Below are positions 39,170 through 56,012 of a DNA stretch of 64,000 nucleotides, piece after piece. A model generated the notes under the pieces. That model saw only the letters and a list, made by a program, of their open reading frames with translations. It ran no database searches and was not told the DNA's origin. Position 1 is the first letter of the stretch. Every line of letters begins with the position of its first letter. The translations under genes and the position numbers were made by a program. Location: NCBI GenBank assembly GCA_007376345.1, contig VMGA01000002.1, positions 8,309-72,308 of the forward strand, given 5' to 3'. The DNA is from Microgenomates group bacterium Gr01-1014_16 (GTDB lineage Bacteria > Patescibacteriota > Microgenomatia > CAZETR01 > Amesbacteraceae).

Positions 39170-39170
<1 letters not shown>
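38736..39170 (+). CDS. Hypothetical membrane-anchored protein
   Basis: A 144-aa ORF with an N-terminal TM segment (LLFGGAIAVVISGAVVGFIL). No recognisable motif. Confidence 0.35.
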
Positions 39171-39839
<669 letters not shown>

Positions 39840-39847
<8 letters not shown>

Positions 39848-40718
39848 CCATTTTACAACCGCCGCCAATCGTATCCGCCGTTCACCCTACCAAACCCTGG
39901 CCGCCGTTTCTATTATGACCATGACTCTGTTTCTGGCATGCGCCTTCTTTTTGATCGCCGCCGGCTCTCAAGCCGTCCTCAAATATTTCGAGACCCGCCC
40001 CCAGGTCAACGCCTTCTTTGCCACCGATTTTACCCCTTCCGCCAGCCAGGTAGAAATCATCAAGTCTGATCTCGCCGCCACAGGCACGACCGATTCAATC
40101 ACATACATCTCCAAAGAAGACGCTCTGACCATTTACAAGGAGCTCAACAAAAACGACCCCCTGCTTTTAGAAGCTGTCACCGCCCAGATGCTCCCCGCGT
40201 CCATCGAAGTCACCGCTGTTAACCCTTCGGATCTCAAGCCGTTGGCCGACCGGCTCAAAGAAGTGGAGGGCATTTCTGACGTCCGCTATGCCGAAGATGT
40301 GGTGGGTCAACTGTCCAAGTGGACCGCTTCAGTTCGGGCTATCGGAATTGCCCTCGTCGGAGCCCACGTTTTCATTACCTTTACAATTATTATGCTCATC
40401 ATTGGGGTCAAAGTAGCCAATCGTCGCGAAGAAATCTCTCTTCTGCAACTAGTTGGCGCCACACCCGGCTATGTCGCTGCTCCGTTTATCTGGGAAGGGC
40501 TTCTTTATGGTTTGTCCGGGGCCTTTATTGCCTGGGGGGTTTCCTATCTGGTCCTGCTTTATTCCACCGGGTTTTTGATCGGATTTTTGACCGGAGTCCC
40601 CATTCTCCCCGTCCCTGTCATATTTATGCTCGAAGTTCTGGCAGGTACAATCGCTTTGGGAGCGTTAGTTGGCGGCTTGGGGGGATTTTTAGCCGTCCGC
40701 CGCTACCTCAAAGCATGA
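39840..40718 (+). CDS. ftsX: Cell division permease FtsX
   Basis: An N-terminal TM helix, an extracytoplasmic domain and three C-terminal TMs in the FtsX-like arrangement. It overlaps ftsE by 8 nt. Confidence 0.85.
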
Positions 40719-41812
40719 AGAAAAAACTTTTACTCCTCCTCGTTTACACTTTTACACTTTTACACACTTACGCTTTAGTGTCCGCAGACACGTTGTCCGA
40801 CAAACAAAGTCAGATCGATGAATTAGAATCAAAGGTTGCTTCACTTCAATCCCAAGCCAAAACCCTGGCCGGTCAAATCGCCTATTACGACGGCCAGATC
40901 GCTCTGGCCAACCTCAAAATTTCCCAAAGTGAAGATTTGATAACCAGCATTTCTACCAAAATCCGCCTGTTAGAACATTCTCTCCAGACCCGTGGGCAAA
41001 TTTTAGAAAGTCAAGTCAGGGAAACTTACAAACAAGGCCACCAGGATCTTTTGTCCTTATTTTTCTCCTCCCCCAATTTTTCCGCCGCCATCAATCGTTT
41101 CAAATATCTCCAGGTTGTCCAGGACCACAACCGCAAATTTCTCCACGATACCCAGGTCGTCCAAAGCAACTATTCTTCCCAAAAAGATCTCCTAGAGCAA
41201 TCCCGCGTCCGTCTGGAAGCCCAGAAAAAGTCCCTGGCCCTTATCCGCGCCGACCGGGACAATTTACTCACCCAGACCAAAAACGACGAAGCCGTTTACC
41301 AGAAACAACTAGAGCAAGCCCGCCTAGAATATGAAGCTATCCAAAAAGCGCTTATTGCTGGAAAAAAAGAGGGTCCAGTTAAGAAAGGCGATCCGATTGC
41401 GCTAGTTGGTAATTCAGGATATTGGGCACCTGATCCACGACAGGGTTGCTCTACTGGTAAACACTTACATTTTGAAGTCCGGGTGAACAACGATTGGATC
41501 AACGCCGAAACTTACGTCAAATCCATGACTGACAAATGGGGTTTAAATATCGGTTCTGGCAACTGGGATTGGCCCCTCCAGAGCCCAATCGAGATTACTC
41601 AACGCTACGGCAAAACCAATTACTCTTACGTGTATAAATATAGTGGGGGGATTCATACCGGTATAGATATGGTTTCTAATCAAGACGTAATCTATGCCGT
41701 AGCCGACGGAACTCTATATTCTTATACTGGCAAATGTGGTCCGGCCGATCTGAACATCAAATACATCGACCACGGCTCCAATCTCAAAACCTTCTACCTG
41801 CATATCCAATAA
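40715..41812 (+). CDS. EnvC-like coiled-coil protein with a peptidase M23 (LytM) domain whose conserved segments appear in permuted order
   Basis: ATGA overlap with ftsX. It has a signal peptide and about 200 aa of coiled coil. The segment VKKGDPIALVGNSGYWAPDPRQGCSTGKHLHFEV (an HxH block, normally C-terminal) precedes WPLQSPIEITQRYG...GGIHTGIDM...IDHGSNLKTFYLHI (the HxxxD block, normally N-terminal). Confidence 0.7.
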   Translation: MKKKLLLLLVYTFTLLHTYALVSADTLSDKQSQIDELESKVASLQSQAKTLAGQIAYYDGQIALANLKISQSEDLITSISTKIRLLEHSLQTRGQILESQVRETYKQGHQDLLSLFFSSPNFSAAINRFKYLQVVQDHNRKFLHDTQVVQSNYSSQKDLLEQSRVRLEAQKKSLALIRADRDNLLTQTKNDEAVYQKQLEQARLEYEAIQKALIAGKKEGPVKKGDPIALVGNSGYWAPDPRQGCSTGKHLHFEVRVNNDWINAETYVKSMTDKWGLNIGSGNWDWPLQSPIEITQRYGKTNYSYVYKYSGGIHTGIDMVSNQDVIYAVADGTLYSYTGKCGPADLNIKYIDHGSNLKTFYLHIQ

Positions 41813-41875: not shown

Positions 41876-42688
41876 GTGTGGTATATTCAGTTTATGATGT
41901 GGTGGAGCCTGATTCTCCTTTTTTTCCTCTCCACCTTCCCCGCTCTTGCCGTCACGATCACCCTCTCCAATGTTCCCTCTTCAATTTCTACAGACCCGTT
42001 TACTCTAAACGTTGATATTTCCGGCCCGAATCCCGGCACAAACTACTTACGCGTAGATCTTTTTAAGGATGGGACAAGTAACTATTTTGGTGAAACTAAC
42101 AATGGCTCAGTTTATTATGGCGGATCTGATGGCCTGCAATACTTTCCGGTCACAATTAACGCCGAAGGAACAGCTTCTGCCCAGCTCACAGCCAGAATAG
42201 GCAATCCTTCTCACACGGATTATCCTGGATCGGGTCAATATAAATTGAAAATCCGACGTTATACCTCGGCTGACAGTAACTCCTCGTCCAATTCGAATGA
42301 TGTTCAAATTACCTTCGACTGGCCTACTCCTACCCCTACCTCCACTCCCCAGCCAACGAGTCCCCCTGCTCCGACCAATACACCCGCCCCCACAACTACC
42401 CCCAAGCTCTCCTCCACCCCCAAGCCGTCAGCCACACCCACGCCGAAACCAACTTCTCCGCCTATTACAGTTACTGTTACTCTTACAACTCCGCAGGTTT
42501 TGGCCGAAGCCACCGAATTCTTCACCAACTCCTCCCCGACCCCAATTCCTGTTCCAGAATCAATAACCGATAACCGAACACCGAACACCGAACACCAATC
42601 TCCCCCCTGGCCGGCCTTTCTCCTTATAGGCCTGGGCGCAGGTGGCCTGGCCGCCTCCGCCTACCTCTTTTTCCGCTCTCGGGGCTAG
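41876..42688 (+). CDS. Cell-surface protein with a signal peptide, a Pro/Thr-rich linker and a C-terminal TM plus basic tail
   Basis: An N-terminal hydrophobic signal, a PTPTPTSTPQPTSPPAPTNTPAPTTTP linker, and a C-terminal LLIGLGAGGLAASAYLFFRSRG. There is a CCGAACA x3 microsatellite at 42571-42591. Confidence 0.4.
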   Translation: MWYIQFMMWWSLILLFFLSTFPALAVTITLSNVPSSISTDPFTLNVDISGPNPGTNYLRVDLFKDGTSNYFGETNNGSVYYGGSDGLQYFPVTINAEGTASAQLTARIGNPSHTDYPGSGQYKLKIRRYTSADSNSSSNSNDVQITFDWPTPTPTSTPQPTSPPAPTNTPAPTTTPKLSSTPKPSATPTPKPTSPPITVTVTLTTPQVLAEATEFFTNSSPTPIPVPESITDNRTPNTEHQSPPWPAFLLIGLGAGGLAASAYLFFRSRG

Positions 42689-42753: not shown

Positions 42754-45700
42754 ATGGCTCAACCAACCGTCATTTTGCCCCGCCACCGACGGACTATGTT
42801 GGGTGCGGGCGTCTCTCATAATGGCCGGGAGTATATCACCCATTCCACCCTTCCCCACCACCTCTCTGCCCATATTACTCTAGTCCTCTGGCAGAAAATA
42901 TTTCTCCTCTTACTGTTACTGTTACTGCTTACAGGTTTATTCTTTTATCCCTGGGCCACCGCCATCGGATTCATAGCTGTTTTGACCGCCGTCTACTTCG
43001 CCGACGCCGTATTTAACTTCATTTTGATCTTCAAATCCCTCCACTTCCCCCCCGAAATCACCTTCTCGGATATTGAACATCGAACATTGAACATTGGACA
43101 TTTACCCACATATTCTATCTTATGTCCCCTCTACCGCGAAGCCCGCGTCCTTCCCCAGTTCGTCGAGGCCATTTCCGCTCTCGACTGGCCCAAAGCCAAG
43201 CTGGACGTCCTGCTTCTCCTGGAGGAGGATGACACAACCACAATCGAGGTCGCCCATAGCCTTAATCTGCCCTCATATTTCCGGACAATCATCGTTCCGG
43301 TTTCACAACCCAAAACCAAACCCAAAGCCTGCAATTATGGCTTGAGCTACGTCAAAGGTGAATATGTGGTCGTTTACGACGCCGAGGACCGCCCCGAACC
43401 CGACCAGCTCAAAAAGGCCTATCTGGCCTTCCAAAAAGTTCCGGCTTCGGTCACCTGTCTTCAATCCAAGCTCAACTACTACAACCCCCGCCACAATCTG
43501 CTCACCCGCCTCTTCACCGCCGAATATTCTCTCTGGTTCGACGTAGTTTTGCCCGGCCTTCAGTCGATCAACACCACCCTCCCCCTGGGCGGTACCTCCA
43601 ACCACTTCCGCACCAAAATCCTAAAAAAGCTTCATGGCTGGGACGCCTTCAACGTCACCGAGGACTGCGATCTGGGTTCCCGTCTTTTCAAAGCCGGCTA
43701 CACCACGGCTATTATCGACTCCACCACTTACGAAGAAGCCAACAGTCAGTTGGGTAACTGGATCAGGCAGCGCTCGCGTTGGATCAAGGGCTATCTCCAG
43801 ACCTTTCTCGTCCACAACCGCCACCCCCTGAAGTTTTTGCGCGACCACGGTTGGCATGCCCTCATTTTCCAGCTGATAGTCGGCGGCAAGATCGCCTTTA
43901 TGCTCATCAACCCCTTCCTCTGGCTCATGACCTTCGCCTACTTCACTCTTTATAGCTTCGTCGGCCCGGCCATCGAATCTCTTTATCCCGCTCCCGTCTT
44001 CTACATGGCCGCCTTCTCTGCTGTTTTCGGTAACTTTCTCTATCTCTACTACTATATGATCGGCTGCGCCAAACGCGGCCATTGGGATCTCATCAAATAT
44101 GTCTTCTTTATTCCCCTCTACTGGCTTTTTATCAGCATCGCCGGCTTCAAAGCCCTGGCCCAGTTGATCCTGCGCCCCCACTACTGGGAAAAAACCCACC
44201 ACGGCTTCCATCTTGACCGGGCCGAATCTTCCTTCCTGCGCTCCCAAATCATCTCCCGTTTCGGTTGGGTTCGTCCTTTAGCCGGGCATCGCCTCACCGG
44301 CGCCACGCTTTTAGTCGCCTCGGCCGCAGCCGCCAATTTCTTCAATTTTCTCTACAATGCCTATCTGGGCCGGGTTTTGTCCGCATCCGATTTCGGTTTA
44401 GTAGCCCTCATGGGCAGCCTGATATTTATTGTCAATCTTCCGATCGGCGCCCTCTCCGGAACTGTTTCCTATCGGGCTTCCTATCTCATTGGCAAGTTCG
44501 GTAGCACAGCCCAAGCCTTTTGGTCACTCATCCGCCGTCGCTCAATCATGGTCGCTATTTTGTGTGTCCTTGTCTGGCTGGTTCTCTCGCCCTGGCTGGC
44601 CGGTTTTTTCCGCTCCCCCGACATCCTGCCTTTTTGGCTCTTCGCTCCCATTTGGACCATCGCCTTCACTGCTGCCGTCGACCGGGGTTTCTTAACCGCC
44701 AACCTCCGCTTTTTCACTTTGGCGGTGGTCATTCTGGGTGAGGCCTTGTCCAAATTTGGCCTGGCCGTGTTATTTGTTCATCTGGGCTATCCCCAGCTGG
44801 TCTACGCCGCCATTCCTTTGTCCATGGTTTTACCGTTGGGCATTGGCTGGTGGGTAGCTCGCAGAACCACCTCACCCGTCGTTTTGGACCCCTCCCATAT
44901 TACCTATTTCCCCAGGCGTTATTTTGCCACCTCGATTCTTATGGGTCTATCCGCTCTTGGGTTTTTGAGCTTGGACGTGATTTTAGCCAAGCGCTTTTTG
45001 GATCCCGTCTCCGCCGGCAACTACGCCCTGCTTTCCCTGGTTGGCAAAATGATCTATTTCTTCGGCAAGCTGGTTTCCCAATTTACTATCCCCCTGGTCA
45101 GCCGGGCCGAAGGCGAGGGCGCCGATTCCCAAAAAGTCTTTCTGCCCATCTTTCTCCTGTCCGTTTTTGCTACTACTGCCGGCTTTGTAGCCTTAGGCCC
45201 ACTGGGCCATCTCACCGTCCCCCTCTTACTGGGCGCCAAGACTATCCCGATATTGCCATATCTCACTCTCTATTCCCTGGCCCTGGCTCTCTATACCATG
45301 ACGACTACCGTCATTGATTACCACCAGGCCCGCCGCCACTATCTTTTTCCCGTCACCGGTTTCTTTTTAGCCATTGCCCAAGTCGTCGCCCTGTCCTTTT
45401 TTCACGACCACCTATCCATGTTGGTCAACGTCATCTTTGCCTTGAGCCTGTTTTATTTCCTGCTCATTACCGGCCTGCATTTCACCTATGACGCAATAAT
45501 AATTATTTTTCACAACCTCCACGATTTACTGGACCTTTTTTTCTTGAGGCTCAACGGCCGCCGCCCCCTGCCCTCCGACAAACTGCGCATTTTAGCTTTC
45601 AACTGGCGGGATACCAAACACGTCTGGGCCGGTGGGGCGGAAGTATATTTACACGAAGTAGCCAAGCGCTGGGTCACGGCCGGACACACAGTCACTCTTT

Positions 45701-46755
45701 TTTGCGGCAATGACGGCCATGATCCCAGAAATGAAATGATGGACGGAGTCAAAATAATCCGCCGCGGTGGCCTGTTCACCGTCTATATATGGGCGTTTTT
45801 ATACTACGTCCTCAAATTCCGCGGCCGCTTCGACGTTATTATCGATTCCGAAAACGGCATTCCCTTTTTCACACCACTTTTCACTAGGCTTCCGGTCTTT
45901 CTTTTAATACATCACGTCCACCAGGATCTCTTTCGTTCAAATCTTTATTTCCCCATGGACAAAATAGCCATGCTTTTAGAAGGCAAACTTATGCCCCTGG
46001 TCTACCGGAATTCCCGAATCATCACCGTTTCCGATTCCTCCCGCAAAGATATTTTGTCTCTAGGCTTTTTCAAATCCGACAATATTACAGTCGTCAATCC
46101 CGGTATCGATCCTTCTATCTTTTACACCTCTCCCAAAACCCGCTATCCTTCGTTTGTCTATCTCGGCCGCATCCGCGCCCAGAAAAATATCGACGTGGCC
46201 ATCCGGGCTTTTGCCTCTGTTGTCAAAAAATATCCCAAAGCCCGGTTCTCCATTGCTGGCTGGGGTGACAAATTAGACGAATTAGCCAAATTAGCCAAAT
46301 CACTCAGACTGGCCAAATCGGTCAAATTCCTAGGCAAAGTCAGCGATGCCGAACGGGTCAAACTTTTAGGAAAATCCTGGGCCATGCTCCAGCCCAGCTC
46401 TTTTGAAGGGTGGGGGATAACGGTTATCGAGGCCAATGCCTGCGGGACTCCGGTAATAGCTTCGAACGTCCCCGGCCTGCGCGACTCCGTCCTCCACGAT
46501 GAATCCGGTATTTTAGTTTCTCTCAAGAACGAATTTGAATTGGCCGAATGTATGAAATTGTTAATTTCCCTTCCGGACTACCGCTCCCGCCTATCCCAAA
46601 ACGCCCTCGCCTGGTCCACCAACTTCAACTGGGACGTCAAATCAGCCGAATTCATCCGCGCCGTCTCAAATCGTAACCAGAAACAGGAGTTAACTATCCC
46701 GCTCGCCAAACCCGGTTTGGCTTATTCGTATGAATCAACTGATCAACATTCTTAA
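42754..46755 (+). CDS. 1333-aa fusion protein: processive GT2-type glycosyltransferase, Wzx/MOP-flippase-like polytopic domain, GT4 (group 1) glycosyltransferase
   Basis: The GT2 part carries the D,D motif VVYDAEDRP, the Q(R/Q)xRW motif NWIRQRSRWIKG, and flanking TM helices. The middle has about 12 TM helices, with GNYALLSLVGKMIYFFGKLVSQFTIPLVSR in the Polysacc_synt/Wzx style. The C-terminus is GT4, with EGWGITVIEANACGTPVIAS (the EX7E region). The reading frame is uninterrupted. Confidence 0.75.
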   Translation: MAQPTVILPRHRRTMLGAGVSHNGREYITHSTLPHHLSAHITLVLWQKIFLLLLLLLLLTGLFFYPWATAIGFIAVLTAVYFADAVFNFILIFKSLHFPPEITFSDIEHRTLNIGHLPTYSILCPLYREARVLPQFVEAISALDWPKAKLDVLLLLEEDDTTTIEVAHSLNLPSYFRTIIVPVSQPKTKPKACNYGLSYVKGEYVVVYDAEDRPEPDQLKKAYLAFQKVPASVTCLQSKLNYYNPRHNLLTRLFTAEYSLWFDVVLPGLQSINTTLPLGGTSNHFRTKILKKLHGWDAFNVTEDCDLGSRLFKAGYTTAIIDSTTYEEANSQLGNWIRQRSRWIKGYLQTFLVHNRHPLKFLRDHGWHALIFQLIVGGKIAFMLINPFLWLMTFAYFTLYSFVGPAIESLYPAPVFYMAAFSAVFGNFLYLYYYMIGCAKRGHWDLIKYVFFIPLYWLFISIAGFKALAQLILRPHYWEKTHHGFHLDRAESSFLRSQIISRFGWVRPLAGHRLTGATLLVASAAAANFFNFLYNAYLGRVLSASDFGLVALMGSLIFIVNLPIGALSGTVSYRASYLIGKFGSTAQAFWSLIRRRSIMVAILCVLVWLVLSPWLAGFFRSPDILPFWLFAPIWTIAFTAAVDRGFLTANLRFFTLAVVILGEALSKFGLAVLFVHLGYPQLVYAAIPLSMVLPLGIGWWVARRTTSPVVLDPSHITYFPRRYFATSILMGLSALGFLSLDVILAKRFLDPVSAGNYALLSLVGKMIYFFGKLVSQFTIPLVSRAEGEGADSQKVFLPIFLLSVFATTAGFVALGPLGHLTVPLLLGAKTIPILPYLTLYSLALALYTMTTTVIDYHQARRHYLFPVTGFFLAIAQVVALSFFHDHLSMLVNVIFALSLFYFLLITGLHFTYDAIIIIFHNLHDLLDLFFLRLNGRRPLPSDKLRILAFNWRDTKHVWAGGAEVYLHEVAKRWVTAGHTVTLFCGNDGHDPRNEMMDGVKIIRRGGLFTVYIWAFLYYVLKFRGRFDVIIDSENGIPFFTPLFTRLPVFLLIHHVHQDLFRSNLYFPMDKIAMLLEGKLMPLVYRNSRIITVSDSSRKDILSLGFFKSDNITVVNPGIDPSIFYTSPKTRYPSFVYLGRIRAQKNIDVAIRAFASVVKKYPKARFSIAGWGDKLDELAKLAKSLRLAKSVKFLGKVSDAERVKLLGKSWAMLQPSSFEGWGITVIEANACGTPVIASNVPGLRDSVLHDESGILVSLKNEFELAECMKLLISLPDYRSRLSQNALAWSTNFNWDVKSAEFIRAVSNRNQKQELTIPLAKPGLAYSYESTDQHS

Positions 46756-46774
46756 AAGAATTCGCTCCATCATT

Positions 46775-47425
46775 ATGCGGCAGATAAAACCTAGCCGCAA
46801 CTATTGGCTTGCCCATCGAAGTGTCCGACCACTTAGTTCCAAGTTTGGGTTCGACCGTGGCACTCCCATTGATCGATATTGGATAGAATCGTTTCTTTCT
46901 AAGCATCATCAGGACATTCAAGGGAGATGTCTTGAAGTTACAGACAGCAAATACACTACTCAATTCGGTCAACATATCATAAAAAGTGATATCTTGGACA
47001 TTAATCCCAAAAACAAACTAGCCACTATTCACGGCGACCTGCGCCATTTACCCAAAGTCAAAAGCAATACTTATGACTGCATTATTTTAACCCAAGTTCT
47101 GGGATTAATAGATGATTATGAATCAGCCATTGGGGAATGCCGGCGTATTCTCAAGCCTGAGGGAATATTGTTAGTCACCATGGCCAGTCTTTGTCCAACT
47201 TTTTACGAGGAGGGAAGTTTCTGGCGATTAACTACAGCCTCTGCCAAATTTGTTTTCAAAAAATATTTCAAACCCCAAAACCTTCTAATTCAAGGTTACG
47301 GAAATATTTTAACCGGTCAATGTTTTTGGGTTGGCATGTGCCAGGAAGAACTAACCAAGAAAGAACTCGAATATTACGACCCCAGTTATACATGTCTGGT
47401 CTCTATAAGGGCAGTTAAAGATTAA
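46775..47425 (+). CDS. Class I SAM-dependent methyltransferase
   Basis: CLEVTDSKY...KSDILDINP...YDCIILTQVLGLIDDYESAIGECRRILKPEGILLVT contains motifs I, II and post-II. The start is at the internal MRQIKPS, just after the upstream stop. Confidence 0.6.
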   Translation: MRQIKPSRNYWLAHRSVRPLSSKFGFDRGTPIDRYWIESFLSKHHQDIQGRCLEVTDSKYTTQFGQHIIKSDILDINPKNKLATIHGDLRHLPKVKSNTYDCIILTQVLGLIDDYESAIGECRRILKPEGILLVTMASLCPTFYEEGSFWRLTTASAKFVFKKYFKPQNLLIQGYGNILTGQCFWVGMCQEELTKKELEYYDPSYTCLVSIRAVKD

Positions 47426-47426
47426 T

Positions 47427-48320
47427 ATGAAACCCACAGTCAGCATTGGTATTCCCGCCTACAATGAAGAGGCCAATCTCGGACACTTGCTCTCGGACTT
47501 GCAATCTCAAAAACAAACCGGTTTCAAACTCCAGGAAATCATTGTATCCTCTGACGCCAGCACCGACCAAACAGTAAGCATAGCCAAGAAATATTCTGGT
47601 TCTGGGGTCAAAATTTTGGACAACCAAGTTCGTCAAGGTCAAGCCGCCCGCCAGAACCAGATTATCGATCTGGCAAATTCCGACGTTCTTGTTTTGTTAA
47701 ACGCTGATATTTTAATCGAAGGTCGGGATTTTGTCTGGAGGTTAATCCAGCCCATAACAAACAATCATGCCGACCTCACTTCAAGTAATCTCCTGGCCCT
47801 TGCACCCAAGACTTTTATGGGCCAAGTCTTGTTTCATTCCCTAAAGCTTAGAAACGAAGTCTACAAAAAATATCATTTGGGACAAAATATTTATACTTGT
47901 CATGGCGCCGCCAGGGCGTTCTCCAAGAATCTGTACCAGAATTTTAGGTTCCAAAACAGCGTAGCAGAAGATGCTTACTCCTACCTTTACGCTATTTTCA
48001 AAGGATATAAATATCGTTATGTCGCAGATGCCATAGCTTACATTAGATGGCCAGAGTCGTTAATCGATCACGAGCGCCAAAGCTTGCGTTTCTTTCAATC
48101 TCAAAAAGTTCTCTCGTCCCAATTCGATCCCCAATTCGTCAGCGATCAATATAAATTACCGCCACTTGAGGTACTTAAAACCGTCGTCAAATTTTACCTT
48201 CAATATCCTATTCACGCTCTTGCCTATTCATTTATATTTTGGTTTATGTTTTGCAAATCATTTTTCAAACGGCCCATGGACACCTGGCAATCGTCTGTTA
48301 GTTCTAAGATTCTCAAGTAG
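47427..48320 (+). CDS. Glycosyltransferase family 2
   Basis: VSIGIPAYNEEANLGHLL...IIVSSDASTDQT...LLNADIL contains the GT2 DxD-type motifs. Confidence 0.8.
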   Translation: MKPTVSIGIPAYNEEANLGHLLSDLQSQKQTGFKLQEIIVSSDASTDQTVSIAKKYSGSGVKILDNQVRQGQAARQNQIIDLANSDVLVLLNADILIEGRDFVWRLIQPITNNHADLTSSNLLALAPKTFMGQVLFHSLKLRNEVYKKYHLGQNIYTCHGAARAFSKNLYQNFRFQNSVAEDAYSYLYAIFKGYKYRYVADAIAYIRWPESLIDHERQSLRFFQSQKVLSSQFDPQFVSDQYKLPPLEVLKTVVKFYLQYPIHALAYSFIFWFMFCKSFFKRPMDTWQSSVSSKILK

Positions 48321-48321
48321 T

Positions 48322-49122
48322 ATGAACAAACTTATCTTAGCCAGAAAGATTATCTATCCCGGATTGGGGATATTAGACAGCGTCCTTTTAAGACGCCCCG
48401 AAGGTATTACTATTTTTTGCTACCACAGCATCTCTTCAGACTCTTGGCGCTTTAGTGTGACTGCTCAAGAGTTTAAAAATCAGTTGGACTATCTTCTTAG
48501 CCATTTGCACCCAATTTCCCTTTCAGATGTCCATCAATATCTAAATAGAAAAAAAGAAATCTCTTCTCCTTCTTTCGTTTTAACCTTCGATGACGGATTT
48601 AAAGACTTGATGAGCGTAAAAGAACACGTCAAAAAATTAGGTATTAAGCCGACCATATTTGTTTTATCCCATCCGCAAAAAACCAACAAAACGGAATTGG
48701 GAACAAGTCAAGATTTATTAAAAGATAAAGATGTTTTTGCGCTTCATAAATCCGGTTGGGAAATTGGCTGTCACAGCGCTACCCACCCAGACTTTTTTTC
48801 CTTAACAAGTACAGATTTGAAGGAGGAAATAATTGAATCCAAAAAAACTTTGGAATCTAAATTAAATCTTCCTGTCGAGTACTTTGCTTACCCCAAAGGC
48901 CGATATTCACCCGCCGTTCTGGCCGCAGTTCAAAAAGCCGGATACCAGCTAGGTTTGACCATGGACGACGGGATTATTAGCCGAAATACAAACCCGCTCC
49001 TCTTGCCTCGGGTCGGTGTTGATGGTTCTCATTCGTTTGCCGAATTTACCTCATCTTTTTCCCCATCGGTTGTCAAATTGAGGGGAATGTTAAAAAGACG
49101 TAAAATAGGCCTTAATATATGA
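48322..49122 (+). CDS. Polysaccharide deacetylase (NodB homology domain)
   Basis: LTFDDGFKDL (the TFDDG motif) and GCHSATHPDF (the His-His metal site). The start is at MNKLILARK, just after the upstream stop. Confidence 0.75.
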   Translation: MNKLILARKIIYPGLGILDSVLLRRPEGITIFCYHSISSDSWRFSVTAQEFKNQLDYLLSHLHPISLSDVHQYLNRKKEISSPSFVLTFDDGFKDLMSVKEHVKKLGIKPTIFVLSHPQKTNKTELGTSQDLLKDKDVFALHKSGWEIGCHSATHPDFFSLTSTDLKEEIIESKKTLESKLNLPVEYFAYPKGRYSPAVLAAVQKAGYQLGLTMDDGIISRNTNPLLLPRVGVDGSHSFAEFTSSFSPSVVKLRGMLKRRKIGLNI

Positions 49123-50309
49123 CCAAATCGCATCGCGGTTCCATTGCGGTAGTCTCCAAATATTTTTACCCGGTTGCCGCCGGCATCGAAGTTAATGTTT
49201 TGGAAACTTATTCTGTACTCGCCGGTCTAGGTTGGGATGTGACCATATATACTTCTCGCGATACTCTGACCGAAAAAAGTGTCCTTCCACAAACGGATAA
49301 TATTCGGGGATTAAAAGTTATCCGTTACCCGTTTGCCAACGACTATTTTGGATACGTTCCCGAGATCAACTGGAAATCGGTGGACGTCGTATGTCTCCAT
49401 AATTTTAACGTCTTTCATTTCTGGATACTGCTCTATGTTGGTTGGTTCAAACTTCTCGGCCGCAAAAAATTTGCCCTGATTGTCACTCCACACGGCGCTT
49501 TCAACCCGGAATGGTCGATATATCCCAAATGGAGCATGGCTTTTCCCAAACAGCTCTACCACTACATTATCGGGACATTTTTTATGAACACTGTGGCAGA
49601 TAAAATGCGGGCTGTTTCCAATTGGGAAAGACAGGAGATCATCAACAAAGGAGTCCACCCTGACAAGGTCGAGGTTATCAGCAACGGCTTGGAGGATGAG
49701 GCTTATCAGGACATTGACAGTTTGGCTAGTTCACAAATTAAAGATCGAGTTAAAAAAATAGGTCGATACTTAATTCAAATTGGTCGCGTTTATCCCATAA
49801 AGAATTATGAAACCGTCATCAAGGCATTGCCAGACATACCTTCAGACGTTAAGTTTATAATAGCTGGTCCAATAGAGAGCAATTACAACGACACTTATTA
49901 CGCAGCCCTAAAAGATTTAATATCCAATCTCCATCTAGAAAATCGGGTAATTTTTTGGGGAGTAATTCGTGGGGTTGACAAATACTACCTCATTAAACAC
50001 GCCCAAATGATGGTCCACATGGCGCTGTGGGAAAGTTTTTGTAACGTCGTTCACGAAGGCATGAGCCAGGGTCTTGTTTGTATTGTGGCCAACAACACTG
50101 CTCTCCCGTATCTTGTTAAAAACGGTGTTAATGGCTATTTAATTGATACTCATGACTATGTCTCTCTAGCCAGAAAAATAAATTACACATTGGATCCAAA
50201 AAACTCTCGCGAAATTAAATTAATCCAAAGTTATAACACTAAGCACGGTCGGGACAATTCATGGCGTCAGGTGGCGCTTAAAATGGACAAGCTATACAAA
50301 AATTTATGA
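49119..50309 (+). CDS. Glycosyltransferase family 4 (group 1)
   Basis: IQIGRVYPIKNYETVIKAL...MVHMALWESFCNVVHEGMSQGLVCIVAN is the GT4 E...E region. It has an ATGA overlap with the upstream gene. Confidence 0.75.
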   Translation: MTKSHRGSIAVVSKYFYPVAAGIEVNVLETYSVLAGLGWDVTIYTSRDTLTEKSVLPQTDNIRGLKVIRYPFANDYFGYVPEINWKSVDVVCLHNFNVFHFWILLYVGWFKLLGRKKFALIVTPHGAFNPEWSIYPKWSMAFPKQLYHYIIGTFFMNTVADKMRAVSNWERQEIINKGVHPDKVEVISNGLEDEAYQDIDSLASSQIKDRVKKIGRYLIQIGRVYPIKNYETVIKALPDIPSDVKFIIAGPIESNYNDTYYAALKDLISNLHLENRVIFWGVIRGVDKYYLIKHAQMMVHMALWESFCNVVHEGMSQGLVCIVANNTALPYLVKNGVNGYLIDTHDYVSLARKINYTLDPKNSREIKLIQSYNTKHGRDNSWRQVALKMDKLYKNL

Positions 50310-50914
50310 AAAAACTCATCTATTCATTATTCCCCCTATACAGGTTTTTTTACCATCACCTTTCCATGGCCAAAATTAATGTGTACATGATGATTTTGGG
50401 GATGAAGATCAGATACCTTGGTCATCACTGTAGAATATATTTTGCCAATATGACCGAGCCCTACAATGTCTCAATCGGCCACCATGTCCATATAAACAAA
50501 AACTGCGAAATTATTACCACCGGCAGCCCTGTCGAAATCGGAAATTATGTCATGATTGGTCCAGGCGTCACTCTTGTGGCCCAAAACCACGACGTTTCAG
50601 ACTGGTCGATGCCCATGATTTTTAGCAATAAATACATTCGGGGAAAGGTTAAAATTGCTGATGACGTTTGGATAGGCGCTAATGCCACCGTCCTCTCCGG
50701 AGTCACGGTCAACAGGGGCGCAGTCATCGCGGCGGGAGCCGTCGTTACCAAAGATGTGGAGGCTTTTTCAATAGTCGGCGGCGTCCCAGCCCAAAAAATA
50801 AAAAGTCGTTTCCCTGTAGAAGTTATCAAAAAAGCTCATAAGGTAAACTTTAATAGTTTTGAAAACGCCGATATGAACTGGCGTAAATGGGGAGTGGGCA
50901 ATTATGCAAATTAA
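50306..50914 (+). CDS. Hexapeptide-repeat (left-handed beta-helix) sugar O-acetyltransferase
   Basis: Tandem [LIV]GxxxxI hexapeptides are present, for example IGNYVMIGPGVTLVAQNH and VWIGANATVLSGVTVNRGAVIAAGAVVTKDV. The pattern resembles WbbJ or maltose acetyltransferase. Confidence 0.7.
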   Translation: MKKLIYSLFPLYRFFYHHLSMAKINVYMMILGMKIRYLGHHCRIYFANMTEPYNVSIGHHVHINKNCEIITTGSPVEIGNYVMIGPGVTLVAQNHDVSDWSMPMIFSNKYIRGKVKIADDVWIGANATVLSGVTVNRGAVIAAGAVVTKDVEAFSIVGGVPAQKIKSRFPVEVIKKAHKVNFNSFENADMNWRKWGVGNYAN

Positions 50915-50926
50915 AAAAAATCAATT

Positions 50927-52456
50927 ATGAAGTATTTTCTATTGATCTTTTCTTTCATCATTCTCACGTTAAGCATCGCTGGGAGATGGGGGAATCCCTC
51001 CATTTCTATGCTAAACGATTCCGCCTCTCCATATACCAATGTCTTCGAGAACTCCTCACCACGGGCCAGATTTGCCCTAATCTATTCAATTCTTGAAAAC
51101 CGCTCTTTAGTATTTTCTTTACCTTTGGCCAAGTTCTCACTGCCTGACTTGGCAGTTCATGATGGTAATTATGTCTCTTTGTTTGCTCCGGGGACATCTT
51201 TTCTAGCACTACCGGGTTATGTAATAGGTAAAACCTTAGGGGCCTCACAGCTTGGTACTTACTCCATAGTCTCGATTTTTGCCATCCTCAATGTTTTTCT
51301 CATTTACCTTTTTCTACGAAATTTAGAGGTCAGCCCTTTAGCTTCTGCCTTAGCCGGTCTAATATTTCTTTTTGGCTCACCAGCATTTGCCTACTCTGTC
51401 ACTCTCTACCAACACCACTTTTCTACTTTTCTCCTCCTTGCAGCCTTACTCCTGGTCCAGCGCAAAACAAACTTTTTATCCTTATCTGTTGTTTGGTTTT
51501 TATCCTCTCTTTCCATTCTCATAGATTATCCCAATCTTTTTCTTATGGCTCCGGTAGCTTTATTTGCCCTGACTCGTTTGATAGACGTAAGCCATCTTAA
51601 AAGCCGATTAAAAATAAGCCTTCGCCCCTGGCATCTATTAACTTTTGTTGCAGTCATCCCTCCGCTTTTGGCGTTTCTGTGGTATAACAACTCAGCCAAT
51701 GGTGGCCTGTTTCGTCTCTCCGGCTCTTTGCGCCGCGTTGAAGCTATTGACCTCTCGGGTCAGCCCACTACCCCACGCCTTCTTGAACAGGGTCAAATTG
51801 AAAATTTTATCCAGTCTAACCCTGACAAAAAGAACACCGTAAATTTCTTCCGTACCCGCCGCCTCCTTGGTGGCTTTTACACTCATTTTATGAGTCTAGA
51901 CCGAGGTTTGATATTTTTTTCTCCAGTATTAGTTTTGTCAATTATTGGGGTCGGGATTCTAAATCAAAAAAGAAACCAACTATTAAACGTTCTTCTAGGA
52001 GTGTTGGGCGCCAATGTCATCATCTATTCCCTTTGGGGTGATCCCTGGGGGGGGTGGGCATTCGGTTCTCGGTACCTCATACCCAGCTACTCTATCCTGG
52101 CCATATTTTTGGGTATTGGTCTAGGACATTTTCATCGCCGTCTTTTAGTAATTTTACCGTTCCTGGTTCTTTCAGTCTACTCAATTGCTGTTAATACTCT
52201 TGGAGCTATAACGACAACCAACAATCCACCTCAAGTGGAAGTTCTGGCACTTGAAAAGGTCACTGGACGAGAGGAAAAGTACACCTGGGAACGAAATTGG
52301 GATTTTCTGATAACCAACGGCTCCAAGTCATTTGTCTTTCAAACTTATGCCAAAAATTATTTGACTGCCCCGCAATACTTTTACATTATCTCATGGGCGA
52401 TTGTCTCCGCGGTAATTTTACTTACCTATCGGCTTTACAGTTATGATAGTCCTTGA
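50927..52456 (+). CDS. Polytopic membrane protein, GT-C fold glycosyltransferase-like (ArnT / PMT / GT39-83-like)
   Basis: A 509-aa ORF with more than 10 TM helices and a periplasmic loop early. No catalytic motif could be assigned by eye. Confidence 0.4.
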   Translation: MKYFLLIFSFIILTLSIAGRWGNPSISMLNDSASPYTNVFENSSPRARFALIYSILENRSLVFSLPLAKFSLPDLAVHDGNYVSLFAPGTSFLALPGYVIGKTLGASQLGTYSIVSIFAILNVFLIYLFLRNLEVSPLASALAGLIFLFGSPAFAYSVTLYQHHFSTFLLLAALLLVQRKTNFLSLSVVWFLSSLSILIDYPNLFLMAPVALFALTRLIDVSHLKSRLKISLRPWHLLTFVAVIPPLLAFLWYNNSANGGLFRLSGSLRRVEAIDLSGQPTTPRLLEQGQIENFIQSNPDKKNTVNFFRTRRLLGGFYTHFMSLDRGLIFFSPVLVLSIIGVGILNQKRNQLLNVLLGVLGANVIIYSLWGDPWGGWAFGSRYLIPSYSILAIFLGIGLGHFHRRLLVILPFLVLSVYSIAVNTLGAITTTNNPPQVEVLALEKVTGREEKYTWERNWDFLITNGSKSFVFQTYAKNYLTAPQYFYIISWAIVSAVILLTYRLYSYDSP

Positions 52457-54041
52457 TATCCCCATTACTCCCATTCGAAATTTTTTCAACAAGTACGTTT
52501 TTTGGTTGATCACCATAACTCTGACGATTTTCTCGATCTTTTATTTTCTCAATTATTATTTCAACGGTCTGGGTCTGGCCTATAACGACGCCCGGTCGCA
52601 CCTCGATATTGGCAGAAGGGTTGTTGAGAGTCTCAAACCGGGACTGGCCCAACTGGGTTCCGTCTGGTTGCCCCTCACCCACTTGCTCATGGTTCCTACC
52701 GTTTGGAATGACTTTATGTGGCATTCCGGTCTGGCCGGAGCCATCCAGTCTATGGCCGGCTTTGTCGCCGCCGGCCTCCTCATTTATAAAATTCTGGAAA
52801 AACTAAGAGTTGGAACTCTTGGTCGTCTGGTTGGAGTTGCTGTCTTTGTCGCCAACCTCAACGTTTTGTATTTGCAATCTACGGCCATGACCGAACTGCC
52901 GCTTTTGGCCACTATGACCGCCGGCTGTTATTACCTCATCAAATGGCACCAAACCGACAATATTTTAGACGTCATCAAATCCGCCTTCTGGATCATGCTC
53001 TCTTCACTCATCCGTTACGACGGCTGGTTTTTATTTTTAGCCGCCGCCGGTTTGATTTTTGTCCGCCAGCTAAAGAAAAATGGCTACAAAACTGCCGAAG
53101 GCGCCATGATCCTATTCGCCACCCTGGCCGGCTTCGGCATCGCCCTCTGGTTTCTCTGGAACCAGTTAATTTTCAAAGATGCTCTCTACTTTGCCCTTGG
53201 TCCCTTTTCCGCCCGCGCCCAGCAGATCCAGTTAAGCAACGCCGGCAACCTGCCCAGCAAGTACAACCTCTTCCTGTCCACTAAAATTTATCTGTACGCC
53301 CTGTTTTACAACTCCTATACCCTGCCTGTCTTTTTGGCCCTGGCCGGCTTGGCTGTTCTCCTCTGGGACCGCCGCTTGCACTTTGACCTGCGTCTCTCTA
53401 CTTTGTCACTGCTCACGCCGCTTGTTTTCAACATTATTGCCATGTTTTTTGGTTTCTCCGTACTTTTTGTCCAGGGCATTTCCGGAGACACCTGGTTCAA
53501 CATCCGCTACGGCATCATGCTTGCCCCCGCGGTAGCGGTTTTTATAGGTATATTGATCGACCGGGTCAAATCCTTGCGTCCGGTGATTATCGGCCTTTTA
53601 GCCTTCGTTTTATTCTTCGCTTTTGCCAACCAGGACGCGGTCACAATTGACGACGCCCGTGTGGGATCCAGCCAGAAAAACGTTTCCGAAGTCGCTTCAT
53701 ATCTGGCCAAAAACGCCGCAGACCAGCCCGGCTTTATTCTCATCTCCGTCGCCTCTCATGACGCCATTATTTTCTCATCCGGTCTGCCCATATCCCGCTT
53801 TATCCACGAAGGCACCGGCGCCTACTGGACAGCGGCTACAACCGCTCCCGACCGCTGGGCCCGCTGGATCATCATGCGTACATATGACGACAACGATTTA
53901 GCCTGGAAATTCGTCTCCAAATCACCGGGCTTCAGGTTCTATTCTCTAGTGAATCATTATCCCTTTGCGGACGTCTACGAAATAGATCCGTCTCTGGTCG
54001 GCCAACTCCACACCGAACCGGTTTTCAAGAACCAGAAGTAA
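52443..54041 (+). CDS. Second polytopic GT-C-like membrane glycosyltransferase candidate
   Basis: A 532-aa ORF with more than 10 TM helices and the loop motif YNDARSHLDIGRR. The C-terminal PVFKNQK is encoded by a 20-nt stretch that is duplicated at 54729-54748. Confidence 0.4.
   Translation: MIVLDIPITPIRNFFNKYVFWLITITLTIFSIFYFLNYYFNGLGLAYNDARSHLDIGRRVVESLKPGLAQLGSVWLPLTHLLMVPTVWNDFMWHSGLAGAIQSMAGFVAAGLLIYKILEKLRVGTLGRLVGVAVFVANLNVLYLQSTAMTELPLLATMTAGCYYLIKWHQTDNILDVIKSAFWIMLSSLIRYDGWFLFLAAAGLIFVRQLKKNGYKTAEGAMILFATLAGFGIALWFLWNQLIFKDALYFALGPFSARAQQIQLSNAGNLPSKYNLFLSTKIYLYALFYNSYTLPVFLALAGLAVLLWDRRLHFDLRLSTLSLLTPLVFNIIAMFFGFSVLFVQGISGDTWFNIRYGIMLAPAVAVFIGILIDRVKSLRPVIIGLLAFVLFFAFANQDAVTIDDARVGSSQKNVSEVASYLAKNAADQPGFILISVASHDAIIFSSGLPISRFIHEGTGAYWTAATTAPDRWARWIIMRTYDDNDLAWKFVSKSPGFRFYSLVNHYPFADVYEIDPSLVGQLHTEPVFKNQK
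54021..54040. repeat. Direct repeat copy 1, gttttcaagaaccagaagta. Its partner is at 54729-54748
   Basis: 18 of 20 nt are identical between the copies. Each copy encodes a C-terminal PVFKNQK plus stop. The copies flank the HEPN/MNT cassette. Confidence 0.75.
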
Positions 54042-54063: not shown

Positions 54064-54447
54064 ATGAAAGACGAAGCTAAAATCTGGTTGGAGCAAGCAG
54101 AAGACAGTCTAAAAGATGCCGAATATCTTTATACAGGATCCCGCTACTCAATGGCCGTTTACTGCTGCCATCAGGCCCTCGAAAAAATCCTTAAAGCTTG
54201 CATAATCCAGTTTGCTAACCAGCTTCCTCCAAAATCGCACAATCTCGACGCTCTTGCCCGTCAAACCACGCTTGAGTTTCCTGATAGCTGGCTGGAAGAC
54301 CTAGCCGAAATCACTCACCATTTTTGGCGCGTCCGTTATCCGGACTTCCAGAAATTTGTTTACACCTCCAAAGAATCAGTCAAGCCTACCTACGATAAAA
54401 CTAAAGAGGTTTTTATATGGATAAAACAACACTTACCACAGATATAA
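54064..54447 (+). CDS. HEPN domain protein (HepT-like toxin candidate)
   Basis: MAVYCCHQALEKILKACII...PKSHNLDAL is the HEPN pattern (QA.EK.LKA....H.L). An Rx4-6H-type RVRYP...H region is also present. Confidence 0.6.
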   Translation: MKDEAKIWLEQAEDSLKDAEYLYTGSRYSMAVYCCHQALEKILKACIIQFANQLPPKSHNLDALARQTTLEFPDSWLEDLAEITHHFWRVRYPDFQKFVYTSKESVKPTYDKTKEVFIWIKQHLPQI

Positions 54448-54749: not shown

Positions 54750-54758
54750 GTGGAATTC

Positions 54759-56012
54759 ATGAAAAAATTTCTTTCGTCACTGATAATTCTATTTCTTGTT
54801 TCTGTTACTGTTACTGTGCCCGCCGAAGCCGCAGGCGAAGGCCGGGCTGTTTGGTGGCAGTTCCAATCCATCGACACTATGAAATATTCCCGGGACATAG
54901 CCCGTGAAAAACTCAAGGATTCCTCTTTTGACACCTCTATTGATTTGCAGGTCAAAAACATCGCCGCCACCGGCGCCACTCATGTAGCCATTGCCACTCC
55001 ATATGACGAAGAATTTATTCCTTTTTTGACCCGCTGGGTAAACGCCGCCCGCAAACACAAGCTCAACATCTGGTTCCGCGGTAATTTTTCCGGTTGGGAA
55101 AACTGGTTTGACTATCCGGAAATTTCTCGGGAAGAGCATCTGGCCAAAACCAAAACCTTTATTACCAAAAATGCCGGATTATTTCAAAACGGCGACGTTT
55201 TCACAGCCTGCCCGGAGTGTGAAAATGGCGGACCGGGCGATCCCCGCCAGACAGGAGATGTAGAAGGTCATCGTCAATTTCTTATAGACGAATTTGTGAC
55301 CACCCAGCAGCTTTTTCGTAACATGGGGAAAAATGTCCGGTCTAATTATTTCTCTATGAACGGCGACATGGCCAAAGCCATCATGGACAAAGAAACTACC
55401 ACTGCCCTCGGCGGTATCGTGACTATCGATCATTACGTCGCTTCACCCCAAAAATTGGTCAAAGATATCCAAAATCTTGCCCATCAGTCCGGAGGTAAAA
55501 TAATACTAGGTGAATTCGGTGCCCCGATTCCGGATATTCACGGCTCAATGTCCCAGGACCAGCAGGCTAAATGGCTGAATGACGCTTTCAAGCTTTTAGT
55601 TTCCACTCCGGAATTAGTCGGCATTAATTATTGGACCAACGTCGGCGGGTCCACCCAGCTCTGGACAGAAAACTATGAGCCCAAAAAAGCCGTTGATGTC
55701 GTTACTTTCTATTTCTTTCCCAAAACCGCCCGAGGCATCGTGAATGACGTTTTCGGTTCCACCATAAAAAACGCACAAGTTTCTTCATCACATAAGACTG
55801 TTTATGCCAACTCAGCCGGAAATTTTCAACTACCATATATTGACTCCTCCGATCCTCTTTCCGTGTCTGCCAAGAATTATATCTCCAAAGAATACAATAA
55901 TTACTCAAGTGATAAAAACATCGAAGTTTACTTATCTCCTATCCGAAAAGGAATACTTTTTAGACTCAAACTCTTGACTTATAGGCTTCTTGGTCGTAAA
56001 ATACATGGTTAG
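54759..56012 (+). CDS. Secreted TIM-barrel glycoside-hydrolase-like protein (GH5-like, tentative)
   Basis: A signal peptide (MKKFLSSLIILFLVSVTVTVPAEA), and IILGEFGAP (a GExG nucleophile-like region) with CPECENGGP upstream. The assignment is by pattern only. Confidence 0.35.
   Translation: MKKFLSSLIILFLVSVTVTVPAEAAGEGRAVWWQFQSIDTMKYSRDIAREKLKDSSFDTSIDLQVKNIAATGATHVAIATPYDEEFIPFLTRWVNAARKHKLNIWFRGNFSGWENWFDYPEISREEHLAKTKTFITKNAGLFQNGDVFTACPECENGGPGDPRQTGDVEGHRQFLIDEFVTTQQLFRNMGKNVRSNYFSMNGDMAKAIMDKETTTALGGIVTIDHYVASPQKLVKDIQNLAHQSGGKIILGEFGAPIPDIHGSMSQDQQAKWLNDAFKLLVSTPELVGINYWTNVGGSTQLWTENYEPKKAVDVVTFYFFPKTARGIVNDVFGSTIKNAQVSSSHKTVYANSAGNFQLPYIDSSDPLSVSAKNYISKEYNNYSSDKNIEVYLSPIRKGILFRLKLLTYRLLGRKIHG

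Follow-up and report, generated by a model that had tools for sequence, protein, structure and literature searches.

The Microgenomates group bacterium Gr01-1014_16, a member of the candidate phyla radiation (CPR), encodes in a single gene an inner-membrane protein of 1333 amino acids (aa) that joins a synthase-like GT2 glycosyltransferase module, a linker, a predicted MOP-superfamily transporter domain and a GT4 glycosyltransferase. The gene occupies positions 42754..46755 of the 64-kb stretch of contig VMGA01000002.1 that we analyzed (the window; coordinates given without a locus label are positions in it, and all genes described lie on its + strand). This multi-domain fusion is genuine and selectively maintained, and it arose by joining neighboring genes of a conserved envelope-glycan locus.

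A genuine fusion gene conserved in Microgenomates

The open reading frame (ORF) listing gives an ATG start, 1333 codons and no internal stops, a length far beyond chance for an open frame ((61/64)^1333, ~1e-28). An identical protein is present in public databases as 'family 2 glycosyl transferase [Microgenomates group bacterium Gr01-1014_16]', and a database search returned more than 120 full-length relatives from independent Microgenomates assemblies. The best 120 matches are 1228-1598 aa long and 50-81% identical, with a query coverage of at least 93% (nearly all 96-100%), and come from Amesbacteria, Gottesmanbacteria, Levybacteria, Curtissbacteria, Woesebacteria and others. The four closest relatives, at 81, 72, 71 and 65% identity, derive from independent assemblies and are colinear with the window protein across both domain junctions. 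All four keep the three-domain order, two of them also examined as DNA from unrelated samples.

The composition and divergence of the gene agree with this picture. GC content at third codon positions (GC3) is uniform across the modules (0.58-0.68), and the ratio of nonsynonymous to synonymous substitution rates (dN/dS) is 0.04-0.36 in all segments, including the linker and the second junction, with synonymous divergence near saturation so that these values are approximate. Because of the colinear relatives, the uniform GC3 and the purifying selection, a chimeric join or frameshift error is very unlikely. Separate-gene modules in some related genomes, and apparent frameshifts within the gene at three loci, would suit an assembly artefact in which two or three separate genes were merged, but the identical protein and the four relatives from independent assemblies and samples, the same domain order in more than 100 further relatives, the even GC3 and the selection acting on linker and second junction leave that explanation with next to no probability. 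At the three loci in question (L010:376-5065, L015:9272-13961 and L019:338-5003) the frame appears to change inside a domain, and these are assembly errors or pseudogenes.

An earlier reading made from the sequence only had described one uninterrupted 1333-codon frame with three domains, and here the ORF, its motifs and the colinear relatives agree; its call for orthologous fusions, as a check against a chimera or frameshift, is answered by the more than 120 colinear relatives. It had also called the architecture unusual, which is true relative to model organisms but not within Microgenomates, where the fusion is the norm.

Domain architecture of the fusion protein

Conservation within the protein is highest in the GT2 module, at 71% identity among distant family members, versus 41% for the MOP domain and 56% for the GT4. 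This module opens with an N-terminal cytoplasmic stretch and two transmembrane (TM) segments, TM1-TM2 (42754..43053; TM aa ~39-97), in which T29, H30, A39 and Q47 are invariant. The GT-A catalytic core follows at aa 101-360 (43054..43833), identified by Pfam, invariant motifs and matches to BcsA and hyaluronan synthases (HAS), and then a post-GT2 segment of interface and TM helices at aa 361-474 (43834..44175), placed from hydropathy and the structural model. Three Pfam GT2 families match aa 118-425 above their gathering scores (Glyco_trans_2_3, 1.6e-25; Glyco_tranf_2_3, 2.2e-22; Glycos_transf_2, 7e-11). The motifs VVYDAEDRP (D209/D212) and QRSRW (aa 339-343), picked out by the sequence-only reading, are both in place. 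In 25 homologues D160, D209-A-E-D212, T302-E303-D304 and Q339-R-S-R-W343 do not vary; the corresponding DAED, TED and QRSRW motifs, invariant in the family, lie at 43378-43389, 43657-43665 and 43768-43782.

BcsA is the best solved sequence relative of this module (5ej1, E 4.6e-7), and CelA and PgaC lead the NCBIfam GT2 matches of the fusion protein. A Foldseek search with the GT2 model returned hyaluronan synthases and BcsA as best matches (8smn, 4p00), aligned over 440-500 columns that include the TM region, at TM-scores of 0.3-0.5. Hydropathy places two TM segments before the GT2 core and three to four after it. The post-GT2 region, modeled as three long helices at low confidence (predicted local distance difference test, pLDDT, 43-61), is under the strongest purifying selection of all segments (dN/dS 0.04-0.06). 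A cytoplasmic linker needs four membrane passes here, and the invariant N386-P387 may split the first helix of the model in two.

Between this module and the transporter domain lies a variable, Arg/Lys-rich linker (aa 475-513; 44176..44292), probably cytoplasmic, which is recognized from its pLDDT, its length spread and split loci as the point of fusion and fission. Its pLDDT is ~30 in a 945-aa model whose predicted TM-score (pTM) is 0.48, without confident fixed packing between the domains, and its length across the family ranges from 21 to 69 aa.

The middle domain (aa 514-930; 44293..45543) is predicted, from Pfam matches of its relatives and a fold search, to be a Wzx/PST-like transporter domain of the MOP superfamily with 12 TM segments. 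Hydropathy finds ~12 such segments between aa 514 and 918. The isolated segment of aa 510-932 gave zero Pfam or NCBIfam matches even at E ≤ 10, and a PDB sequence-profile search with an alignment of 17 middle domains (relatives 36-88% identical) gave chance matches only. Of those 17, Polysacc_synt recognizes six (best 1.6e-8) and Polysacc_synt_3 three (best 2e-13), among relatives 36-44% identical to the window copy. An AlphaFold2 model built from the same alignment has twelve TM helices, as many as Wzx and MATE proteins, against 14 in MurJ (pLDDT 86, pTM 0.85), and all of its top 50 Foldseek matches in the PDB are MOP-superfamily transporters (MATE, WzxE, MurJ), so that on the model the domain has a MOP fold. 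Structural scores do not separate Wzx from MATE; the Pfam matches in relatives, together with the genomic context, place the domain on the Wzx/PST side, with a MATE-like exporter structurally possible. The earlier description of a Wzx/Polysacc_synt-like polytopic segment is borne out by the 12 TM segments, the fold and the relatives' matches, but not by a profile match of the window copy. A profile search per segment accordingly detects GT2 and GT4 with Pfam and misses the middle domain in the window copy's own sequence.

Seven charged residues of the MOP domain are conserved (R540, K667, D741, K746, K765, H884 and H909) and its dN/dS is 0.06-0.19; from both we conclude that selection preserves the domain. 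Its setting in a glycan locus, its fusion to GT4 and the conserved cationic residues R540, K667, K746 and K765 provide a context in which it could flip a lipid-linked sugar.

The C-terminal domain (aa 956-1300; 45619..46653) is a GT4 enzyme of the GT-B fold, assigned from Pfam, PDB relatives and invariant residues. Glyco_transf_4 (aa 960-1121, 2.2e-15) and Glycos_transf_1 (aa 1129-1284, 4.7e-38) both match well above gathering scores, together spanning aa 960-1285. The EX7E motif that the sequence-only reading had noted is present as EGWGITVIEANACGTPVIAS at 46405-46431, and 25 homologues all keep its two glutamates, E1218 and E1226. PDB relatives include GlgA, WbaZ, PimA and MshA; NCBIfam matches of the fused GT4, Agl16 among them (1.8e-24), all fall far below the family cut-offs. 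Following the twelfth MOP helix, the GT4 most probably lies in the cytoplasm, judging from the predicted topology.

The domains are separable

Our survey of the family took a single genome from each GTDB species and located the domains at 80 loci with local hidden Markov models. In 51 loci of Patescibacteria type, the ORF containing GT2b has the architecture GT2a-GT2b-MOP-GT4 in 14, GT2b-MOP-GT4 in seven, GT2(a)-GT2b-GT4 without MOP in five and GT2(a)-GT2b alone in 23; two are partial. Five of the 23 loci with GT2(a)-GT2b alone have a MOP-GT4 gene directly downstream, and three have separate MOP, GT2 and GT4 genes. At all eight of these split loci the gene boundary falls inside what is the linker of the window protein: the alignment of the GT2 genes ends at aa 489-502, and that of the MOP genes begins at aa 506-514 except in one locus, where it begins at aa 534. 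In the five loci without MOP (L026, L027, L028, L030 and L034), GT4 is joined directly to GT2, and the fetched flanks hold no MOP gene. Colinear loci at ~50% identity also appear in many metagenome-assembled genomes labeled 'uncultured Gammaproteobacteria', 'Bdellovibrionales' and 'Pseudomonadales' (L007, L008, L011-L014, L016-L018 and others); these labels are probably automatic mislabels of Patescibacteria bins.

The MOP domain also leads a life of its own. An exhaustive phmmer search with it found 2130 cluster representatives, which include free proteins of 410-470 aa and the combinations MOP-GT4 (~820 aa), MOP-GT2, MOP-GT4-GT2, MOP-GT4-acetyltransferase and MOP-kinase-like. Within the fusion gene, identity to close relatives is mosaic: the MOP part (44293-45543) is 89% identical to L083 (351-4316) and 48% to L084 (261-4286), whereas the GT4 part (45619-46653) is 74% identical to L083 and 89% to L084. 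This pattern in the sequences suggests intragenic recombination, with MOP exchanged as a cassette between close relatives. Given the split loci, the variable linker of low pLDDT, the free MOP forms and this mosaic identity, we regard the fusion as a tethered set of separable enzymes and not an indivisible machine.

Most relatives are longer than the window protein, at ~1550 aa, and carry an additional N-terminal domain of ~228 aa (19 of the 25 aligned). It matches the Pyrococcus dolichol-phosphate mannose synthase (DPMS; 5mlz, 1.5e-19), ArnC (1.3e-15) and GtrB (3e-10), as well as the NCBIfam families ArnC, PgfS and AglJ.

A GT2 and GT-C-like gene pair found across phyla

Bacteria of the Chloroflexota, Actinomycetota and Bacillota, cultured strains among them, have stand-alone orthologues of the GT2 module that are 47-52% identical. 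Their constant partner across phyla is a GT-C-like protein of the M532 family, named here after its 532-aa member in the window, and not MOP or GT4. An M532 homologue lies downstream of the GT2 gene in 25 of the 28 non-CPR loci, adjacent or fused in 24, and is downstream in 40 of 46 Patescibacteria-type loci, where accessory genes are inserted between the two. Four of the 24 are GT2-M532 fusions of ~1000 aa from Ktedonobacteraceae and other Chloroflexota (L061:6173-9082, L062:9686-12595, L070:4238-7240 and L075:9788-12793), an independent fusion that links both functions.

M532 has ~8 hydrophobic segments and a soluble C-terminal third, and its D49, a loop-1 residue in the sequence 'YNDA' just after TM1, is invariant across phyla. 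GT-C enzymes have 8-13 TM helices and a conserved acidic residue in their first extracytoplasmic loop. PMT_2 is matched by five of 15 family members (best 2.5e-7), and a GT2b-M532 fusion passes its cut-off of 26.1 with 27.6 bits; a PDB sequence-profile search with an M532 alignment gave chance matches only. M509, its upstream neighbor, and M532 itself give, in their window copies, weak NCBIfam matches to the LA_3751/3752 'putative glycosyltransferase' family (5.9e-10 and 2.1e-4). Two downstream GT-C membrane proteins had been proposed from the sequence, which the PMT_2 matches within the M532 family make plausible, but neither window copy has a Pfam match of its own.

Control by cyclic di-GMP (c-di-GMP) is typical of exopolysaccharide synthases, and the E. 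coli exopolysaccharide synthase NfrB reportedly carries an MshEN domain and is controlled through it. Four of the five non-CPR GT2 orthologues scanned with Pfam have one to six N-terminal MshEN domains (L056:9029-11323, L059:7184-11323, L073:9065-11404 and L079:9164-11416); one Chloroflexi orthologue carries six copies (E 3.7e-90). No MshEN domain is present in the fifth scanned orthologue, the GT2b-M532 fusion of L062. MshEN domains act as high-affinity receptors for c-di-GMP, and fusions of them to glycosyltransferases are known (PMC5013675); the title of a further paper names a c-di-GMP-controlled exopolysaccharide synthase (PMC8669469). By this domain content, the orthologues would imply c-di-GMP control of an uncharacterized glycan system in Chloroflexota, Actinomycetota and Bacillota.

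The surrounding locus

The fusion gene heads a glycan locus, as the sequence-only reading had supposed, and the gene order of this locus is conserved among relatives. In the window and several relatives this order is RF-1, FtsE, FtsX, an M23/PcsB-like peptidase, a Pro/Thr-rich protein, the fusion, accessory enzymes, M509, M532 and S420. Upstream, Pfam identifies FtsE (39170-39847), FtsX with an FtsX_ECD domain (39840-40718) and the M23/PcsB-like peptidase with a PcsB-type coiled coil (40319-41812). The GTG start listed for the peptidase ORF, at 40319, overlaps ftsX by 400 nt, and the true start is probably at ~40715. Next comes a Pro/Thr-rich anchored surface protein of 270 aa (41876-42688). 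Its signal-like N-terminus is followed by a beta-rich domain and a long linker rich in Pro, Thr and Ser, and the chain ends in a C-terminal TM anchor. It stands directly upstream of the fusion also in L001, L006, L013 and L016, which share the order FtsE-FtsX-M23-surface protein, and may serve the PMT_2-like proteins as a target for O-glycosylation.

Downstream, all members of the run that the sequence-only reading had listed were recovered. An accessory block, delimited from Pfam, NCBIfam and GC3, extends from a methyltransferase to M509 (46730..52456) and comprises the methyltransferase (46730-47425), a GT2 (47427-48320), a NodB-type deacetylase of the Polysacc_deac_1 family (48322-49122, in an ORF that opens at 48166), a stand-alone GT4 (49119-50309), a hexapeptide acetyltransferase (50306-50914) and the polytopic M509 (50927-52456). 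The best NCBIfam match of the stand-alone GT4 is the archaeal N-glycosylation enzyme Agl16 (E 1.3e-54, 185 bits, below the cut-off). GC3 in the block is 0.39-0.50, versus 0.58-0.68 in the fusion gene and 0.63 in M532, and its gene content differs even between close relatives; flanked by two conserved core genes, it has the look of a low-GC glycan cassette open to exchange. The co-occurrence of a synthase with a deacetylase, methyltransferase and hexapeptide acetyltransferase recalls the NodC/NodB/NodS/NodL-like lipochitooligosaccharide pathway. We did not adopt that reading because NodC is outside the best 25 NCBIfam matches and because the accessory genes vary between close relatives.

The polytopic, GT-C (PMT_2)-like M532, with its C-terminal soluble domain, follows at 52443..54041. 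A HEPN-domain protein (54064-54447; Pfam 1.9e-23) and an overlapping 110-aa ORF (54417-54749) separate it from S420, although M532 and S420 are adjacent in other loci; the two are possibly an inserted HEPN/nucleotidyltransferase toxin-antitoxin pair. S420 itself (54750..56012) is a secreted protein of 420 aa with a signal-like N-terminus, kept in synteny with M509 and M532 at most Patescibacteria loci, for which no PDB or Pfam relative was found. A sortase gene (56507-56959), with a sortase at the same position in L001, and a gene for a VWA-domain surface protein (62062-63426) lie further on, and the whole region is a cell-surface gene neighborhood. Among the ORFs scanned at 35.6-63.4 kb and in the annotated relative locus, we found no initiating transferase of the Bac_transf or MraY/WecA type.

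Proposed mechanism and alternatives

The account that best covers these observations as a whole is one of tethered but independent enzymes, in which a backbone made by the synthase module would be decorated outside the cell by lipid-linked units that the MOP domain flips. We infer this model from the domains and their context, and are close to evenly divided about it. The modules would be tethered for co-localization and a fixed proportion, and would not form one assembly line. The GT2 module would polymerize and export a conserved backbone glycan, possibly one containing N-acetylhexosamine, as hinted by the deacetylases (NodB-type in the window, PIG-L in a relative). At the cytoplasmic face, the GT4 and the GT2, GT4, deacetylase, methyltransferase and acetyltransferase of the cassette would build a variable lipid-linked unit; in most relatives, the DPMS/ArnC-like domain would probably start that unit on polyprenyl-phosphate. 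A start on a monophosphate carrier would explain why we see no phosphoglycosyl transferase. Once flipped by the MOP domain, the unit would be attached outside the cell by M509 and M532, either to the backbone or to some other surface acceptor. By analogy, the system would be a 'multicomponent transmembrane glycosylation' of the GacI-GacK-GacL or WpsA-WpsG-WpsJ kind, laid over a synthase-dependent backbone pathway.

Several observations weigh against this model. A cellulose-synthase-like fold is possible in a non-processive enzyme: the crenarchaeal mannosyltransferase PcManGT, reportedly non-processive with a minimal fold of this kind, comes next after the hyaluronan synthases and BcsA among the top structural matches of the GT2 module. 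The membrane part behind the GT2 core is modeled at low confidence, which leaves the translocation channel a prediction. A tight pairing of GT2 with GT-C normally marks a lipid-sugar donor synthase and its transferase and not a polymer synthase. The window copies of M509 and M532 have no Pfam match at E ≤ 10, and the MOP module is missing from five loci, so flipping by it is not essential to the locus. Finally, neither the window protein nor its nearest clade has the DPMS/ArnC-like domain, and a tblastn search of the 64-kb window found no clear DPMS-like substitute. Its sole match is the GT2 at 47427 (25% identity, E 4e-4). This enzyme may replace the missing domain, though it also occurs in loci that have the domain. 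The absent initiating domain is unexplained under the synthase model and its main rival alike. Substrate, product, processivity and flipping are all predicted.

The main rival takes the GT2 to be non-processive, making a lipid-linked sugar or short glycan that M532 transfers outside the cell; the MOP-GT4 part would supply or flip that intermediate or a second one, and there would be no synthase channel. The GT2b and M532 pair in 25 of 28 non-CPR loci, the place of PcManGT among the best structural matches and the poorly modeled TM region after the GT2 speak for it, and the layout is the classical one of donor synthase and GT-C enzyme, as in ArnC/ArnT, GtrB/GtrC and GacI/GacL (PMC9574508). We nonetheless consider it unlikely. 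The full motif set of processive enzymes, TED and QRSRW included, is invariant, BcsA and hyaluronan synthases lead the matches by sequence and by structure with the TM region aligned too, and orthologues carry MshEN receptor domains for c-di-GMP. Most Patescibacteria forms, moreover, already have a separate DPMS/ArnC-like domain, which makes a second donor synthase less economical.

Protein O-glycosylation of the Pgf or Ppm1/Pmt kind, as the main business of the locus, seems to us improbable. Lipid-linked sugars would here, once flipped, pass to the PMT_2-like proteins and on to surface proteins rich in Ser, Thr and Pro. M532 relatives do match PMT_2, a protein O-mannosyltransferase family, and the N-terminal domain of the long forms matches DPMS and PgfS; the Pro/Thr-rich anchored protein with its signal peptide stands directly upstream in the window and four further loci (L001, L006, L013, L016), and sortase and VWA surface-protein genes lie downstream. 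Such a scheme, however, leaves unexplained both the synthase-like GT2 module, the most conserved part of the protein, and its MshEN-regulated orthologues, and PMT_2 does not specify a protein acceptor, since it also holds lipid- and glycan-modifying enzymes such as ArnT. It is compatible with the tethered-enzyme model, from which it differs in the acceptor only.

Decidedly improbable is a linear assembly line on a single glycan, in which the GT2 initiates or polymerizes, the flippase moves the same product and the GT4 glycosylates it further, much as the sequence-only reading had proposed for one polypeptide. Three domains in one frame, co-conserved in more than 120 relatives, do speak for it, as fusion usually implies functional coupling. 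However, the GT4 uses nucleotide sugars and by its predicted topology lies in the cytoplasm; it would therefore have to act before any flipping and not after translocation. A flippase is superfluous for synthases of the HAS/BcsA type, which move their product across the membrane themselves, and in related genomes modules are found apart, in another order or missing. The linker is of very low confidence (pTM 0.48 for the model), and MOP and GT4 have different histories within the gene.

Extending the tethered-enzyme model beyond this protein, we offer tentatively, as a rather doubtful generalization, a hybrid route to the main surface glycopolymer of Microgenomates and, more loosely, of many Patescibacteria. 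A conserved backbone exported by the GT2 would carry variable side units; these would begin on polyprenyl-phosphate, be moved out by a Wzx-type domain and be attached outside by GT-C enzymes, with up to four activities per polypeptide and the genes next to FtsEX-PcsB. The route would build on a two-gene system of GT2 and PMT_2-like GT-C (~50% identity) shared by Chloroflexota, Actinomycetota, Bacillota and CPR, with MshEN and c-di-GMP control outside CPR.

The main interest of the fusions lies in what they reveal of an unstudied CPR envelope pathway, more than in enzymatic oddity. CPR, or Patescibacteria, make up a large share of bacterial diversity with few cultured members, and what is known of their envelopes comes almost entirely from genomes. 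This locus, beside the FtsEX-M23 division genes, is among the most conserved envelope-glycan loci in Microgenomates, and its position and conservation make it a good candidate for the principal wall or surface glycopolymer locus; such a polymer could matter for host attachment and phage recognition. Natural fusions and fissions act as a 'Rosetta stone' that puts a polyprenyl-phosphate-sugar synthase, a synthase-type GT2, a Wzx flippase, a GT4 and a GT-C partner in one pathway. The widespread GT2 and GT-C pair has cultured representatives (Paraconexibacter sp. AEG42_29, locus L056; Desulforamulus aeronauticus DSM 10349, L079; and Sporolactobacillus sp. THM7-7, L073), in which its chemistry is directly testable.

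Comparison with known systems

The components are all of known kinds, and the protein is already public under a generic name. In the literature searched, which leaves most subscription-journal papers outside, we found no description of the fusion, of the MOP-GT4 unit or of the cross-phylum GT2 and GT-C pair; one paper that mentions Patescibacteria, a flippase and a fusion together (PMC12419801) deals with other proteins.

The GT2 module resembles BcsA, class I hyaluronan synthases, PgaC/IcaA and NfrB in its GT-A core with D, DxD, TED and QxxRW motifs and TM segments on both sides, and the synthases BcsA and HAS are closest to it by sequence (5ej1) and structure (8smn, 4p00). Unlike BcsA and PgaC, it is covalently joined to MOP and GT4 domains, and its genomic partner is GT-C-like and not of the BcsB or PgaD type. 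NfrB and BcsA reportedly carry c-di-GMP domains (MshEN and PilZ, respectively); the non-CPR GT2 orthologues have MshEN, whereas the CPR forms have neither PilZ nor MshEN.

Likeness to other retaining GT4 enzymes that use lipid-linked or small acceptors (PimA, MshA, WbaZ, PglA/H/J and the archaeal Agl16) lies in the two Rossmann-like halves and the invariant EX7E motif; unlike these, the window GT4 is fused to the C-terminus of a flippase-like domain, in a MOP-GT4 unit (~820 aa) that is also free in related bacteria. Wzx/PST flippases, such as WzxE and the GacK and WpsG proteins of Gram-positive cell-wall polysaccharide pathways, are free proteins, whereas the window MOP is a domain of a larger enzyme, in a copy too divergent for Pfam and a locus where no initiating phosphoglycosyl transferase was found.

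The closest parallel for the locus as a whole is multicomponent transmembrane glycosylation, in which a GT-A enzyme loads undecaprenyl phosphate, cytoplasmic glycosyltransferases may extend the product, a 12-TM flippase of the Wzx family moves it and a GT-C enzyme transfers it to a separately exported backbone (PMC9574508). The GacI/J-GacK-GacL and WpsA/B-WpsC-F-WpsG-WpsJ/I systems (PMC9574508) have the same cast as our locus, with the polyprenyl-phosphate-sugar synthase corresponding to the N-terminal domain of the long forms, and both they and this locus set conserved core genes beside variable accessory genes. Unlike Gac and Wps, however, the window protein is without an initiating domain, and its host is a CPR bacterium; several of the proteins are fused, and the presumed backbone would come from a synthase-type GT2 instead of an ABC-transporter pathway.

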